This document shows positions 1 to 7,484 of a DNA stretch of 35,252 nucleotides, piece after piece. The stretch is from Ferroacidibacillus organovorans (GTDB lineage Bacteria; Bacillota; Bacilli; Alicyclobacillales; SLC66). A program made the translations under genes and the position numbers. The number at the start of each line of letters is the position of its first letter. The first letter of the stretch is position 1. The notes beneath the pieces are model-generated. The model was not told the origin of the DNA and made no database searches. It saw only the letters and a list, made by a program, of their open reading frames with translations. The DNA is taken from contig NZ_LSUQ01000027.1 of NCBI RefSeq assembly GCF_001642725.1, positions 1 through 35,252 of the forward strand, given 5' to 3'.

Positions 1-70
1 CCAAAGCTCTGCACGTCAGACTATTTTGGTATTCTCTGTTCGGGGTGTCTACTCTATTGACTTAATATCA
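1..70. mobile_element. Terminal end of an IS3-family-like insertion sequence (rest lies outside the window)
   Basis: 45-70 GTGTCTACTCTATTGACTTAATATCA ends in CA (reverse complement starts TG...AGTAGACAC), resembling IS3-family inverted repeats. The IS110 reading frame HIKNLPGRKTD begins right at this point, with an in-frame TAA just upstream. Confidence 0.6.
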
Positions 71-1040
71 TATAAAAAATCTTCCGGGAAGAAAGACAGA
101 CATGAAAGATGCTGAATGGATTGCCAAGCTTCTGAGATCCGGATTAATCGAAGGAAGCTTTGTTCCTTCTGAAGAAGTTCGTGATCTTCGCGATCTTACG
201 AGATACAGAAAGAAGTTGGTTTATCAAGCGACCTCTGAGAAAAATCGAATTCACCGTATACTTCAAGATGCAAACATTAAGCTTACATCGTACATGTCAG
301 ATGTCTTTGGAAAATCTGGTCGTCTACTTCTACAAAGACTTGTCAATGGAGAAGTAATCACTTTGGAATTCTTAGAAGAGAATATGAAGGGTCCGTTGAA
401 GCAGAAATCTAATCAATTACTCCAGTCTCTTCAAGGTCGGTTGCGTTCGCATCATGTGGAGATGATTCGTTTCTCATGGGATCACCTTGTCTACATTGAA
501 CAAACCATCAAGCAAATCGATCTTCGAATTTACCTTAGGTTAGAAAGTCGAAGAGAGTCTGTTGAACTGCTCACGACAATTCCTGGAATAAATGAGCAAG
601 CCGCCTCAATCATTATTGCAGAAATCGGTACAGATATGAGCCAATTTAAGAGTGAACACCACTTGGCTGCATGGGCTGGCGTGTGTCCGGGAAATTACGA
701 AAGCGCTGGAAAAAAGAAACGCGCAAGAGTGAGATCCGGTAATAGCCTGTTAAAGGCAATACTTTGTGAATGCGCGTGGGCTGCATCACGAACTCGAAAT
801 ACACGATTATCTGCTCGATATTGGGCTCTGGTTAAGCGCATGGGTAAGAAAAAAGCATTAGTTGCTTTAGCTCATACGCTTCTTAAAATTAGCTACCATG
901 TTTTGCTAAAAAGGCAATCTTATATTGAACTCGGTGTGGAGTATCTCGAACAGTTTCAGATGCGAAGGGAAAAACAGACGGAGACCCATATGATCCAGTT
1001 GCTTGAGGCGAAGGGTTTTCTTGTTACGAAGGCTTGTTAA
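71..1040 (+). pseudogene. IS110-family transposase/recombinase, 5'-truncated
   Basis: Frame continues upstream of the ATG at 102 as IKNLPGRKTDMKDAEWIA. Contains LRDLTRYR, LTTIPGI, IIAEIG, AWAGVCPGNYESAGK and ALVALAH motifs of IS110 (Transposase_20). The N-terminal part of the DEDD domain is missing. Visibly more AT-rich than flanking genes. Confidence 0.9.
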
Positions 1041-1085
1041 AGATTCCTGTTGATATCTATGTGCCTATTGCATTTTCGTAAAAAA
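71..1085 (+). mobile_element. IS110 element, right part with short (~45 bp) right non-coding end
   Basis: After the stop at 1040, AT-rich sequence runs to ...CATTTTCGTAAAA, where CoxA-like coding on the minus strand breaks off. Exact junction is ambiguous within the A-run at 1080-1087. Confidence 0.7.
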
Positions 1086-1804
1086 ATCTGGCCTGAAGGA
1101 TCTTGGGCCGCCAGTGGTTCATATCCCCACAGTCCAGCGGTCGATCCGCCATACATAGGAATGAGAAGAATGGTGATCACCCCGGCCGGGTACATCCAGA
1201 ACGCAATTCCGCCAAGGCGCGGATACATGCGCTCTCGGGCGCCGATCATCAACGGCACTACGTAGTTTCCAAGTCCGCCGACAAATCCGACTACGGCCAC
1301 TCCGAGCAACATCAGCACACCGTGCATCGTGACGGCTGAGAGATACCAGACATCGCCGCCAAAGACGTTGTTGTTGCTCCCCATGAGCTGCGCGCGCATG
1401 CCCATGGCAATCAGACCTGCGATACCGAATGTGGCGACAGACCCAACCATATACTGGATCCCGACCACCTTGTTATCCAGGCTGAGTTCGAAATACCGCC
1501 GCCATCCACGGGACGCTACAAACGTATTTGGCAGTCCGAGCCACGGCCGGACGATCGACTCAAAACCGCCTACCCCGAGAAGCCACCCTACAAACCCTAG
1601 TAGCCAACCGACCGTCACGGCTGGTTCTGTGATGAATGGAGGATTGGCTCCAGGAAAGCGATCCACCAGAAACATGAAACACGTTCCAATAAGAAATCCT
1701 ATCCCCGCCCACAAAAATCCGCGCGCGACCGGCGGCATGGGAGCGCGCCTTCGCGTCGCCCGTGATCCGCCGGGCACAGCCAGTGTTGCACTGTTTTGCG
1801 CCAT
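1083..1804 (-). pseudogene. coxA: Cytochrome c oxidase subunit I, N-terminal ~240 aa, interrupted by IS110
   Basis: DNKVVGIQY, TMHGVLML (low-spin heme His), GNYVVPLMIGA...YPRL, GLWGYEPL. Extra hydrophobic N-terminal extension. The ORF runs into IS-derived LRKCNRHIDINRNL and lacks the CuB/heme a3 ligands. Confidence 0.9.
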
Positions 1805-1860
1805 TCTCCTTCGACCCCTCTCTATCCGCGACGTTGCGCGCGGTCACTGAATCTGGCTGA

Positions 1861-2667
1861 TTATGAGTTCTGGTTAGAAACTTGCGTCTTTTCCTGCGCC
1901 ACCCATATTGCAAACGCTTGCGGTGAAACGACTTCAACATCGGCTTCCATATAGGAGTGTCCCGCTCCGCAAAGTTGTGCGCACTGCAGGCGAACCATCG
2001 GATTGGCGGCCGTCGAAGTGATCTGCGTCGGGGTGATATAGAGATCGCGCGTGATACCAGGGATGATGTCTGCCTTAATACCCCACGCTGGAACGTAAAA
2101 TGAGTGCGTTACGTCGAGGCTGTTCATCACAAACTTGATCTCGCGTCCGGCAGGAACCACAAGCACGTCACGTCCATTCGTCTTGGTGTTCATCGGCAAG
2201 CCGTACTGAGGATACCCAAAGCGAAACTGACATTGCCGAGCCTGGACATTGACCACGAGTGCCCCGTGGTTCCAAGGTGGAAGGCCGTATGCCCAGAGTT
2301 GTTCCATACCCGAGAGATCAGGATGGAGAAAAAAAGTCATGACGATGGCGATGGTGAGCACCATCCAACTTCGCTGAAAGAGCAGATTGCTCTGGTTCTG
2401 CACCGGGCTGTCCCCTGTCTCTCCTGCGCGCTGTCTGAATCTCACCGCGGCAAAAGCCATAAACAAAATGATGAAAACGAACAGTATGACCGAAACGTAA
2501 ACCAGGGTGTCGAAAGCGTCGAGGGACACACCTCCCTGCAGGGAAGCCACATAATAGTACGGGGTGTGAATCACCCAGAGGTGGGCAAAGTATTCAAGTA
2601 TTGCAGAAAAAAAAAGCCACAGACCAACGAACATCGAAATATTTCTGCCGTTTTGGACGCGCTCCAT
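1861..2667 (-). CDS. coxB: Cytochrome c oxidase subunit II (CuA type)
   Basis: DVTHSFYVP and CAQLCGAGHSYM CuA ligands; about three N-terminal hydrophobic segments; RBS GAAGGAGAGGAG before ATG at 2667. No lipobox and no fused cytochrome c. Confidence 0.93.
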   Translation of the reverse strand: MERVQNGRNISMFVGLWLFFSAILEYFAHLWVIHTPYYYVASLQGGVSLDAFDTLVYVSVILFVFIILFMAFAAVRFRQRAGETGDSPVQNQSNLLFQRSWMVLTIAIVMTFFLHPDLSGMEQLWAYGLPPWNHGALVVNVQARQCQFRFGYPQYGLPMNTKTNGRDVLVVPAGREIKFVMNSLDVTHSFYVPAWGIKADIIPGITRDLYITPTQITSTAANPMVRLQCAQLCGAGHSYMEADVEVVSPQAFAIWVAQEKTQVSNQNS

Positions 2668-2693
2668 ACGCCGCTCCTCTCCTTCTTTCGCCG

Positions 2694-3359
2694 TCATGCT
2701 CGCACGATATTGATCGTGCCGCGCATTCCCATCCGATAGTGTTCATAGTGTTGTACAAAGCATCCATAATGCCAAAGTCCCGGCTTGTCCGGAACGGTGA
2801 AGGTGATGTCAACGGCGCCATCAGGATTCAACGTCGGGCTGAAATTCCCTCCGTCCGCGATGTTGTAGAGCGATTTTTGCCCCTCATATGTGACGATGGC
2901 TTTGTTTGGCACAAAGTTATTCACATTGCGCGGATTGCTGAGTGTGACGTAAACACCGTCGAAGAAATCCTCCGCGAACCCGTCCTGCGTCTCTACTCCG
3001 AACACCGTGTTCTCGGTGTTTACATGGCGTCCCACCACCCACTCGTGATACTTTCCTGGGTGGGACTGACTGCGGTTACGAAAGGCGATGGTGATGCGAT
3101 CGCCAACCCGCCATTTCATGTAATTCGGGATGTAGTAATAGTCGAGCGCGTACAGCGGGATGTTTCCAGTTTCTACCTGCGACCCGAATATTTCACGCAT
3201 CGCGCGGGCAATCGTGGATCCGCCAAAGGTACCGATGAGGCCGGCAACTGTCACTGCGCCGACACTAAAAAGAAATTGGCGTCGGCTCCAGTCGGGTAGA
3301 TCCTGTGACCCCTGCGCAATCTCTTCACCTAATGCGTTTTTATTAGGTGTTTCAGCCAT
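2694..3359 (-). CDS. Tat-exported type-1 copper cupredoxin, AcoP/Cup-like
   Basis: SRRQFL twin-arginine motif plus hydrophobic stretch. Ligands H (KYHEW) and C..H..M in GCFVQHYEHYRMGM. Motifs YYYxPxxMxWxVG, NRSQS, FFDGV and VPxKPGxWxYGCF match the AcoP sequence as I recall it. Confidence 0.85.
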   Translation of the reverse strand: MAETPNKNALGEEIAQGSQDLPDWSRRQFLFSVGAVTVAGLIGTFGGSTIARAMREIFGSQVETGNIPLYALDYYYIPNYMKWRVGDRITIAFRNRSQSHPGKYHEWVVGRHVNTENTVFGVETQDGFAEDFFDGVYVTLSNPRNVNNFVPNKAIVTYEGQKSLYNIADGGNFSPTLNPDGAVDITFTVPDKPGLWHYGCFVQHYEHYRMGMRGTINIVRA

Positions 3360-3425
3360 GCCCTTGCCACCTTCTTTCCACTTGGTGATGATTTACTTCG
3401 ACATAAAATCTTCGAAAGCAGGGTA

Positions 3426-3468
3426 ATTTTAGCAACGATCTTCAAACAAGAGTGTGATATATGTCACA
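3426..3468 (-). promoter_or_regulatory. Class II Fnr/Crp-dependent promoter of the cupredoxin-cox operon
   Basis: Perfect TGTGA-N6-TCACA at 3453-3468. Extended -10 TGcTAAAAT at 3434-3426 on the minus strand. Implied +1 near 3419 centres the site at -41.5. Confidence 0.8.
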
Positions 3469-3657
3469 AATATGGATAATAGGTGTCTAGTAAAACGATG
3501 AGAGGTGTTCAGGTGATTGCGATCAGTCACATTTCGTACAATCGTTCTCAGCATGCACATTCCACTGCGGGAGTTCTCTAGCATGTATGGGTCATGCGGT
3601 GCAATCACATTATTTTTTCATGTTAAATTACATTCAACATGAACGTTGGCAATTAGC

Positions 3658-3689
3658 AAAAAAAAGGCACGACGCGAGCACGTCGTGCC
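3658..3689 (-). terminator. Intrinsic terminator of the small membrane-protein gene
   Basis: 9-bp stem GGCACGACG/CGTCGTGCC followed by T8 on the minus strand. Confidence 0.85.
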
Positions 3690-3705
3690 AGACATTTTCT
3701 GTAGA

Positions 3706-3834
3706 TTAGTATGCCCCAGCAGTTCCGCCTGCACCTGTTCCATAGCCATAGGTTGGTACAAACAGGAAGAACAGTACGAAGATGATGAGGAACACGACTG
3801 CCCAGCGAGTATAACCGCCAAAAACACCGTACAT
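3706..3834 (-). CDS. 42-aa Gly/Tyr-rich single-TM small protein (YjcZ/SscA-like sporulation peptide)
   Basis: Manual translation MYGVFGGYTRWAVVFLIIFVLFFLFVPTYGYGTGAGGTAGAY; strong RBS AAGGAGG; own terminator. Not in the ORF track. Confidence 0.8.
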   Translation of the reverse strand: MYGVFGGYTRWAVVFLIIFVLFFLFVPTYGYGTGAGGTAGAY

Positions 3835-3866
3835 TTTTGATTTCCTCCTTTGCGCTTTGATAGTAC

Positions 3867-3893
3867 AGCGTATGAGAGGAGTTCAACTTAGGT
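3867..3893 (-). promoter_or_regulatory. Putative mother-cell (sigmaK/sigmaE-type) promoter
   Basis: AC-N17-CATACGCT on the minus strand, upstream of the 42-aa ORF. Confidence 0.45.
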
Positions 3894-3952
3894 CGTAGGG
3901 CAAATAACCCGTATTCATGATAAATCTTGCAACCGCCTGTCACTGAGTTTCA

Positions 3953-7143: not shown

Positions 7144-7484
7144 AGAGGAAGTTCAAAGAGAAGTCAGAACTCCTCTGCGCATTGGTGTGTCAGCGTCAAA
7201 AATACTCCCTCACGTACGTAAATGTACGCTGTGTACGCATTTTTCGACTCGCTTCCTGCCACTGCTTGATTCTTACCTGACTCCTCTTTGAACGCTCAAG
7301 ATGAGAGGAAGTTCAAAGAGAAGTCAGAACTCCTCTGCGCATTGGTGTGTCAGCGTCAAAAATGTTCCCTCACGTACGTAAATGTACGCTGCGTACACAT
7401 TTTTCGACTCGCTTCCTGCCACTGCTTGATTCTTACCTGACTCCTCTGCGCATTGGTGTGTCAGCGTCAAAAATGCTCCCTCAC
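7144..7484. repeat. Tandem copies of a ~160-bp palindromic interspersed repeat (MITE/bcr1-like): one full, one near-full, one partial
   Basis: Copy 1 from 7144, copy 2 from 7304 (period 160), partial copy 3 at 7440-7484. Terminal inverted repeats GTTCAAAGAGAAGTCAG (7151-7167) and CTGACTCCTCTTTGAAC (7277-7293) match at 16/17. Internal hairpin CGTAC-N6-GTACG. Confidence 0.9.

Follow-up and report, generated by a model that had tools for sequence, protein, structure and literature searches.

How Gram-positive acidophiles take up electrons from ferrous iron, Fe(II), is described as unresolved in Sulfobacillus genome papers (PMC6803676, PMC4062416; here and below, papers are cited for those passages of them that were available to us). 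A locus in Ferroacidibacillus organovorans bears on this question. It lies in a stretch of 35,252 nucleotides, referred to as the window, which is the entire contig C27 of a draft genome (3.03 Mb in 98 contigs, 52% GC, 96.8% complete). The list of open reading frames (ORFs) contains three adjoining minus-strand genes here, for a cupredoxin, for CoxB and for the 5' part of CoxA (Table 1). A sequence-only reading had proposed that these genes form a respiratory module for iron oxidation like that of the Acidithiobacillus rus operon. We find that the locus is almost certainly an AcoP-type oxidase module. It is one of three paralogous cup-coxB-coxA-coxC operons in this genome, and it encodes a CuA-type A-family oxidase of the Acidithiobacillus rus-operon clade. 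As an overall explanation we favour, with some confidence, three operons for cupredoxin-fed CuA oxidases, of which this copy has been inactivated by insertion sequence (IS) DNA.

The stop codon of the cupredoxin gene overlaps the start of coxB. The cupredoxin matches no Pfam or NCBIfam family above threshold. When it was compared with all PDB sequences by phmmer, AcoP chains were the only significant matches (7z3b_A, E-value 2.3e-20; the next match had an E-value of 0.17). The alignment runs in two stretches, over residues 71-140 and 173-219 of the cupredoxin, and the identity to AcoP is about 30-35%. It contains the motifs that the sequence-only reading had named for AcoP (YYY.P..M.W.VG, NRSQS, FFDGV and VP.KPG.W.YGCF.Q...H...GM). 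An AlphaFold2 model based on 26 homologues had a mean predicted local distance difference test (pLDDT) score of 88.1, with helices at residues 26-45 and 47-58. The seven best Foldseek matches of this model in the PDB were AcoP chains (E-values 1e-14 to 8e-14, template modelling (TM) scores of 0.84-0.87 on the target), followed by auracyanin as the first other protein (E-value 2.9e-7). By sequence and fold, the window cupredoxin is a member of the AcoP family. Its type-1 copper site (His105/Cys200/His207/Met212) is invariant in alignments of 15 and 26 homologues and has the C-x6-H-x4-M spacing; this Cys-x6-His-x4-Met loop was described as peculiar to AcoP by Roger et al. in 2014 (PMC4059628). 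The codon of the ligand cysteine is TGC. A twin-arginine motif (SRRQFL) is followed by the predicted helix 26-45, a putative membrane anchor, and TatC is encoded in the genome. The closest database relative is a protein of Ferroacidibacillus organovorans (93% identity).

CoxB (278 residues) matches Pfam COX2 (E-value 5e-12) and TIGR02866 (E-value 1.9e-35, under the curated cut-off). It has no lipobox, no CxxCH motif and no fused cytochrome c. The CuA ligands H198, C239, C243, H247 and M250 are invariant in 28 cupredoxin-linked CoxB sequences, whereas none of the genome's three qoxA proteins has them. We aligned CoxB with those encoded beside AcoP genes in Acidithiobacillus ferriphilus, Acidithiobacillus ferrianus, Acidihalobacter and other hosts. 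Window CoxB has the motifs G(M/L)EQLW, VPAWG and ITPT....TA.NPM.R.QC in common with the two Acidithiobacillus species, as the sequence-only reading had stated, and the three qoxA proteins lack these motifs too. Translation of coxB may start at the second Met (2667), as the orthologue in G006, a genome of the same genus, begins at the equivalent position. The residue between the two cysteines of the CuA site is usually Glu. At the centre of this C-x-E-x-C loop there is a Gln in the window, in L037 (a locus in a metagenome-assembled genome (MAG) of the Bacillota) and in Acidimangrovimonas, a Leu or Met in Acidithiobacillus and a Glu in the other aligned Bacillota. The window and L037 CoxB also do not have a 10-residue insertion that is present in the other aligned Bacillota CoxB.

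The coxA fragment matches Pfam COX1 (E-value 5.6e-22) over profile positions 2-119 of 436. CoxA carries an N-terminal extension of about 100 residues with two hydrophobic segments (PA.TVG...GWL.G.G.(W/F)E). This hairpin, as well as the motif G.WGY.PLA, is common to Acidithiobacillus CoxA by alignment, in agreement with what the sequence-only reading had noted. In our alignments, the two-helix extension is confined to the cupredoxin-linked clade described below, and ordinary oxidases are without it. CoxA is 32-36% identical to ordinary oxidases and 40-47% to the proteobacterial cupredoxin-linked ones.

To place these proteins, we scanned a single genome of each prokaryotic species for relatives of the cupredoxin with a sequence pattern and confirmed them by tblastn. 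This returned 84 sequences, of which 80 were kept, at 78 loci in named genomes. In the Bacillota, the hosts are Sulfobacillus spp., Alicyclobacillus tolerans, Alicyclobacillus ferrooxydans, Alicyclobacillus mengziensis, the strains SP_1 and ALC3, Sulfoacidibacillus thermotolerans and many MAGs. Other hosts are Acidithiobacillus, Acidihalobacter and Acidimangrovimonas pyrenivorans, along with MAGs of Rhodobacteraceae, Alphaproteobacteria, Gammaproteobacteria, Jiangellaceae, Trueperaceae and Deinococcales. An order-and-spacing script found cup, coxB and coxA in this order on one strand at 72 of the 78 loci, or 73 when L032, where coxA is in two pieces, is counted. The remaining five consist of three loci that are cut by contig ends (L017, L026 and L083) and two in Deinococcota MAGs without adjoining cox genes (L074 and L080). 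A coxC gene was also present at 65 of those 72 loci, and a SoxE-like gene lies directly upstream at 24 of the 78. Closer to the window, the cupredoxin gene occurs in eight of the 15 other genomes searched of its taxonomic family, and the module in none of the ten genomes searched of the sister family.

For the CoxA phylogeny, we took in every COX1 match of the window genome and of five named genomes. In a FastTree phylogeny of 103 CoxA rows, a single clade of 85 rows holds every cupredoxin-linked CoxA, with 18 other oxidases outside it (support 100). These 85 rows are 72 from cupredoxin-linked loci and 13 from the genome scan, the latter being ten duplicates, the two other linked copies of the window genome and a second Acidithiobacillus ferriphilus copy of unchecked neighbourhood. 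As the outgroup is small (18 oxidases from six genomes), the purity of the clade holds for the sampled rows, and unlinked oxidases may still fall within it. A quick IQ-TREE run (LG+G4) on 42 selected rows likewise separated 30 linked from 12 unlinked oxidases (SH-aLRT, the Shimodaira-Hasegawa-like approximate likelihood ratio test, 100). In this tree, the gammaproteobacterial acidophiles (Acidithiobacillus and Acidihalobacter) are sister to the Bacillota (support 96), with Rhodobacteraceae and Jiangellaceae outside. Within the Bacillota group, window CoxA and its L037 counterpart (78-79% identical) make up a deep branch by themselves. The window oxidase thus groups in the Acidithiobacillus rus-operon clade, apart from the qox-type oxidases of its own genome.

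The spread of the module over distant phyla fits horizontal transfer. The proposal that it is shared horizontally among acidophiles is supported with respect to transfer and falls with respect to its hosts, which include bacteria other than acidophiles and iron oxidisers. Two loci, L081 in Acidithiobacillus ferrianus MG and L084 in Acidithiobacillus ferruginosus CF3, are from records whose titles name plasmids (p1MG and pCF3-2). These plasmid-borne copies are direct evidence of the module on mobile replicons. An rve-type integrase gene is found about 3.5 kb upstream in L081.

Two further AcoP-like genes are present in the window genome, on contigs C62 and C23, and their products are 46% and 42% identical to the window cupredoxin. 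Both lie in operons that consist of a gene for a SoxE-family (sulfocyanin) lipoprotein, the cupredoxin gene, intact coxB and coxA, and a short coxC, which is COX3 in the C62 paralogue and in the G006 orthologue of the window locus. The genome of G006 also has three AcoP-like copies, among them an intact counterpart of the window locus. Intact copies, which the sequence-only reading had proposed to look for, are thus found twice in the same genome, and G006 has the window locus intact. The window locus has no sulfocyanin gene (3360..3952), and the orthologous locus in G006 likewise runs straight to the next gene. No long ORF separates the window cupredoxin gene from its upstream neighbour, in line with the earlier observation that cyc2 and cyc1 are missing there. 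Rusticyanin was searched for with TIGR03095, and the only matches in the genome were two rusticyanin-like ORFs on contig C28 (95-100 bits, under the cut-off of 146.7), with no rusticyanin gene at the window locus.

Next, we focused on cytochromes. The cytochrome c domains PF00034 and PF13442, as well as ResB and CcmE, gave no match genome-wide, whereas control genomes were positive. The CxxCH motifs of the genome are single and chance-like. A single PF01578 match is flanked by haem-biosynthesis-like ORFs (hemA-like and hemC-like), and because of these neighbours and general knowledge of such gene orders we take it to be HemX. Four of five cupredoxin-bearing relatives from the family (completeness 97-100%) were also without both cytochrome c domains, and one had three matches. 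Cytochrome b matches were weak only (35 and 21-30 bits). They include two paralogous gene pairs (C5:84732-86425 and C10:877-2467 of the window genome, G000), each with a protein of about 205-213 residues that weakly matches Cytochrome_B, followed by a membrane protein of 341-361 residues. These pairs are the only cytochrome-b-like genes found and could be relevant to how electrons from Fe(II) flow uphill. The three other oxidases of the genome are encoded by qoxABCD-like operons, in which subunit II is a lipoprotein without the CuA ligands.

As neither c-type cytochromes nor their maturation were detected, and as the other oxidases are quinol oxidases without CuA, copper proteins would have to feed the CuA oxidases, from the outer face of the membrane. 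The AcoP-like protein is the obvious candidate donor because it is encoded in the same operon. In the proposed mechanism, it would dock on CoxB and pass electrons to CuA, and electrons would reach it from Fe(II) directly, or via the sulfocyanin lipoprotein, or via the two rusticyanin-like proteins. In a Gram-positive cell, an outer-membrane conduit would be unnecessary. We infer that the cupredoxin is the point of electron entry to CuA, which we consider reasonably probable. It is plausible that Fe(II) respiration uses this chain, and we regard the matter as evenly balanced.

Published observations fit copper-fed CuA oxidases. In whole-cell spectroscopy of intact S. thermosulfidooxidans and Alicyclobacillus ferrooxydans, Fe(II) reduces only a-type cytochromes (PMC5143472). 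The latter species carries two modules (L051 and L061). In S. thermosulfidooxidans, the gene Sulth_0452 is presumably an AcoP homologue. The genes on either side of this unlisted gene, Sulth_0449-0451 (oxidase subunits III, I and II) and Sulth_0453 (sulfocyanin), are highly transcribed, and their transcripts drop in the presence of a stronger iron oxidiser (PMC6315122). Ferroacidibacillus species oxidise iron, and sulfur oxidation is named in the description for Sulfoacidibacillus only (PMC11123200).

Several points weigh against an Fe(II) chain that runs through copper proteins. The absence of cytochrome c comes from domain searches of draft genomes. Module-bearing Sulfobacillus genomes do have c-type cytochromes (PMC6803676, PMC4378227), so cupredoxin-only input is not general. 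AcoP of Acidithiobacillus ferrooxidans is described as a partner of both cytochrome c and the oxidase that preserves oxidase activity at low pH; the passages cited do not present it as the protein that oxidises Fe(II) (PMC4059628). In Alicyclobacillus mengziensis S30H14, there are two sox-cup-coxBAC loci, both complete (L056 and L062), and yet its description records oxidation of neither Fe(II) nor sulfur and an oxidase test that was negative (PMC9558579). Further hosts of the module are Acidimangrovimonas pyrenivorans and MAGs of Rhodobacteraceae, Jiangellaceae and Alphaproteobacteria. To our knowledge, none of these lineages outside the Bacillota is known for acidophilic iron oxidation. Finally, as the window copy is broken, it is uninformative on whether the module is necessary.

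The role of AcoP at low pH leads to another explanation of the cupredoxin. It may be an accessory subunit that protects or stabilises the CuA domain at very low external pH, with sulfocyanin or a rusticyanin-like protein as the actual donor. The strict linkage to coxB at 73 of the 78 loci suits a subunit-like partner as well as a donor, and the genome has other cupredoxins that could take the latter part. The full type-1 copper site in all aligned homologues points instead to a redox function, and electron transfer between a dihaem cytochrome and an AcoP-type cupredoxin has been studied (PMC5982212). Moreover, the window operon and its G006 orthologue are without a sulfocyanin gene, and protection from acid makes little sense in those hosts that are not known as acidophiles. 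We consider a purely accessory role unlikely.

The host range bears on a further explanation, in which the module has no particular tie to iron and is either a terminal oxidase of general use that is fed by cupredoxins or a system for handling copper. It would then serve other periplasmic or extracytoplasmic donors, or copper stress, and its frequency in iron oxidisers would only reflect their metal-rich acid habitats. Its presence in the non-iron-oxidising A. mengziensis, and in Alphaproteobacteria and Actinomycetota that are not known as iron oxidisers, is in keeping with this. In Acidimangrovimonas pyrenivorans, CoxB ends in a long tail with many Met, Gly and Ser residues (L071:8407-9597) and the operon is preceded by a pair of genes for a histidine kinase and a LuxR-type regulator, which is likewise in keeping with it. 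AcoP and rusticyanin are called possible determinants of copper resistance in the title of a paper cited by PMC6803676 (reference 64). On the other side, in the absence of cytochrome c it is hard to see what else would donate to three CuA oxidases, and none of the ten sister-family genomes has the module. The named isolates that carry the module are mostly iron oxidisers (Sulfobacillus spp., Alicyclobacillus tolerans, Alicyclobacillus ferrooxydans, Sulfoacidibacillus and iron-oxidising Acidithiobacillus). Iron oxidation has been confirmed for Alicyclobacillus ferrooxydans (PMC5143472) and for Sulfoacidibacillus and Ferroacidibacillus, the last of which is described as iron-oxidising and not as sulfur-oxidising (PMC11123200). 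We consider this further explanation quite improbable, and three operons for cupredoxin-fed CuA oxidases remain the preferred one.

Of these oxidases, the one encoded at the window locus is very probably non-functional. The coxA reading breaks off after codon 241, at about 1082/1083, where it enters a fragment of an IS110-family transposase gene (Table 1). The ORF of this transposase matches NF033542 (E-value 8e-61, profile positions 96-342 of 343), Transposase_20 (5e-24) and DEDD_Tnp_IS110 (1e-12), and is without about the first 95 residues. The last 70 bases of contig C39 are identical to positions 1-70 of the window, and C39 holds the remainder of coxA (C39:20826-22046, minus strand), followed by coxC; the order thus continues as in the rus operon. 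Against the intact C62 paralogue, the 5' fragment aligns over residues 13-239 and the C39 remainder from residue 233 on. As the two together span the paralogue, no coxA coding sequence has been lost. The insert between the coxA halves measures 2611 bp and is made up of about 280 non-coding bases, IS3-type orfA/orfB on the C39 side (G000:C39:22047-23645 region; HTH_Tnp_1 1.5e-18, rve 7e-31) and the IS110 remnant. G006 is colinear on both sides with 82-88% nucleotide identity, lacks the insert and has a coxA for 646 residues.

Table 1. Features at the window end that carries the cupredoxin-oxidase locus
Feature	Positions	Strand	Basis
IS110-family 3' remnant, right-hand part of the insert in coxA	1..1082	+	transposase ORF 102..1040
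coxA 5' fragment (codons 1-241), haem-copper oxidase subunit I, truncated gene	1083..1804	-	COX1 profile
coxB, subunit II, two N-terminal membrane helices and CuA domain	1861..2697	-	COX2, TIGR02866
AcoP-family cupredoxin, 221 residues	2694..3359	-	phmmer against PDB, AlphaFold2, Foldseek
Intergenic DNA upstream of the cupredoxin gene, presumably with its promoter	3360..3952	.	ORFs of at most 96 residues

Since IS DNA splits coxA, full subunit I cannot be made from the window copy, and the idea of a working respiratory module at this very locus has to be given up. Because the reading frames of the cupredoxin and CoxB are uninterrupted and the coxA coding sequence is complete in its pieces, the insertion is probably recent. 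The remaining two operons would carry the function of the inactivated copy. We considered an assembly chimera at the contig break and rejected it: both junctions lie within contigs, the overlap of 70 bases is identical and G006 is colinear on both sides. The junction at position 1082 is also bridged by contigs from the only sequencing runs listed, four DNA runs of one sample, which are not independent of the assembly because this sample may underlie the assembly itself.

We looked for the N-terminus of the IS110 transposase in the stretch of approximately 280 bp that separates coxA from the IS3-type element. The three forward frames are filled with stops, so the missing part seems to have been deleted. 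An Rfam search over both contig ends gave no match with an E-value of 0.1 or better, and hence no support for an IS110 bridge RNA or another RNA in these parts. Base composition bears no sign of recent import (52-56% GC in the region and 52% in the genome). Contig C59 begins with 69 bases identical to C39:22329-22397, and sequencing depth is several-fold higher at window positions 1-70, which indicates that the IS3-type element is present in multiple copies. There is one ambiguous base near C39:22330.

How does this module compare with known systems? It resembles the rus operon of Acidithiobacillus ferrooxidans in its homologous cupredoxin (copper ligands, C-x6-H-x4-M spacing and fold), its cup-coxB-coxA-coxC order and its oxidase, which belongs to the same clade and has the same CoxA two-helix extension and CoxB motifs. 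Unlike the rus operon, the window locus is without cyc2, cyc1 and rus, and its genome is without detected c-type cytochrome domains; its cupredoxin carries a twin-arginine motif and its coxA is split by IS DNA. On the Acidithiobacillus ferrianus plasmid (L081), a 485-residue ORF and, just ahead of the cupredoxin gene, a cytochrome c gene come first. With the oxidases CtaCDEF (caa3) and QoxABCD (aa3-600) of Bacillus, the module shares the haem-copper superfamily, and the window genome itself has three qoxABCD-like operons. However, window CoxB has neither the lipobox nor the fused cytochrome c of these systems and CoxA falls across a branch of support 100 from the ordinary oxidases, so the distinction from ctaCD and qoxAB drawn in the sequence-only reading stands.

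The sulfocyanin-dependent oxidases of acidophilic archaea are another point of comparison. As proposed for the module, a blue copper donor replaces cytochrome c in them (SoxM type, Ferroplasma model; PMC4062416), and a SoxE-family gene lies directly upstream of the two intact operons in the window genome. Unlike the archaeal SoxM systems, the module has a bacterial A-family oxidase of another clade and an additional AcoP-type cupredoxin, with no Rieske protein or cytochrome b in the operon.

A further close counterpart is formed by the AcoP homologues of Sulfobacillus, termed 'group II' by Roger et al. (2014), which belong to the same family and have the same linkage to an oxidase (PMC4059628), together with the soxE and oxidase clusters of S. 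thermosulfidooxidans (Sulth_0449-0453). These authors reported homologues with about 35% identity to AcoP in S. acidophilus and S. thermosulfidooxidans, encoded inside cytochrome c oxidase gene clusters. In our data, the Sulfobacillus loci, of which there are four in S. thermotolerans Kr1, have the order cup-coxB-coxA-coxC, and one has a SoxE-like gene upstream. In contrast to them, the window copy is placed with L037 on its separate deep branch, without the 10-residue CoxB insertion, and in a host without detected cytochrome c. Sulfocyanin has been proposed for iron oxidation in Sulfobacillus since 2014 (PMC4062416), and a network study of 2023 grouped both Cup and Rus with Bacillales, Alicyclobacillus among them, and traced the Cox cluster of Acidithiobacillus to distant phyla (PMC10654088). 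As the link between AcoP and the oxidase in Sulfobacillus was printed in 2014 (PMC4059628), the idea is less new than the sequence-only reading had made it. Among papers on AcoP with Firmicutes or Alicyclobacillus, none was found that treats Ferroacidibacillus, as far as titles and available passages go, and the words rusticyanin, cytochrome, sulfocyanin, copper and 'iron oxid' are absent from two Acidibacillus genome announcements. As far as the literature was searched, what is new here is that Ferroacidibacillus has the AcoP family, and in three copies, that this genome and four relatives lack cytochrome c, that the oxidases with the CoxA extension fall in one clade, that the module has spread beyond acidophiles and that IS DNA has disrupted the window copy.

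The window genome offers a stripped-down case, with three CuA oxidases that each have an AcoP-type cupredoxin, no detected cytochrome c and quinol oxidases for the rest. This narrows the candidate chain from Fe(II) to oxygen to a few small copper proteins that can be tested directly. Because the window copy is broken, it adds little itself, and its intact twin in G006 and the two paralogues are more worth study.

The survey of cupredoxin genes also uncovered an unusual codon in Sulfobacillus. At six of the 78 loci, the codon for the copper-ligand cysteine is TGA (L022:686, L024:1235, L030:8550, L034:5503, L067:8053 and L069:8574). One of these, L030, is from an isolate, Sulfobacillus harzensis DSM 109850. 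In the TGA forms, the reading frame continues past the conserved His and Met ligands to a normal end. All six fall in one CoxA subclade of ten members, the other four of which have TGT or TGC. A hairpin is predicted to start 11-13 nt after the TGA in all six (-7.2 to -10.1 kcal/mol). Folding at the same position gave -2.9 to -9.5 in the four Cys orthologues and -0.8 to -3.7 in eight genes of other clades. SelB exceeded its cut-off in each of the three TGA genomes tested and likewise in two genomes of the subclade that have the Cys form; SelA was found in four of five TGA genomes. A tRNA-Sec scored above the Rfam threshold in three of five genomes and was called tRNA-SeC by ARAGORN. Of 60 newly returned protein-cluster representatives, 11 stop precisely at ...KPG.W.YG; their identity to the S. 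harzensis protein is 68-91%. These truncated representatives are interleaved with Cys forms, and those with a source name are labelled 'hypothetical protein'. A metagenome scan with a 24-base pattern for TGA-type cupredoxin genes returned four stretches, none of which encodes a cupredoxin; these are chance matches. In the available text of a 2026 review of prokaryotic selenoproteins, a word search did not find cupredoxin, plastocyanin or Sulfobacillus.

Judged from these sequences, this Sulfobacillus subclade probably has a selenocysteine-ligated AcoP-type cupredoxin that annotation has not recognised. If so, it would be a naturally occurring type-1 copper site that has selenium as a ligand, in which evolution is tuning the choice between thiolate and selenolate, and it would be of interest to bioinorganic chemists. 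A wider and more tentative reading, which we consider possible while leaning against it, would connect these observations. In Ferroacidibacillus and most of the relatives searched, Fe(II) respiration would run through copper proteins alone, in place of the cytochrome c chain found in Gram-negative iron oxidisers. The rusticyanin-like proteins or sulfocyanin, together with the Tat-exported and membrane-anchored AcoP-type cupredoxin, would be the sole electron route to a clade of dedicated CuA oxidases, and the system could be called a 'cupredoxin:oxygen oxidoreductase'. It would have moved between phyla as a single cassette, with selenolate tuning in the Sulfobacillus subclade.

Elsewhere in the window, at positions 7144-7447, a unit of 160 bp is repeated 1.9 times with 97% identity between two minus-strand genes.

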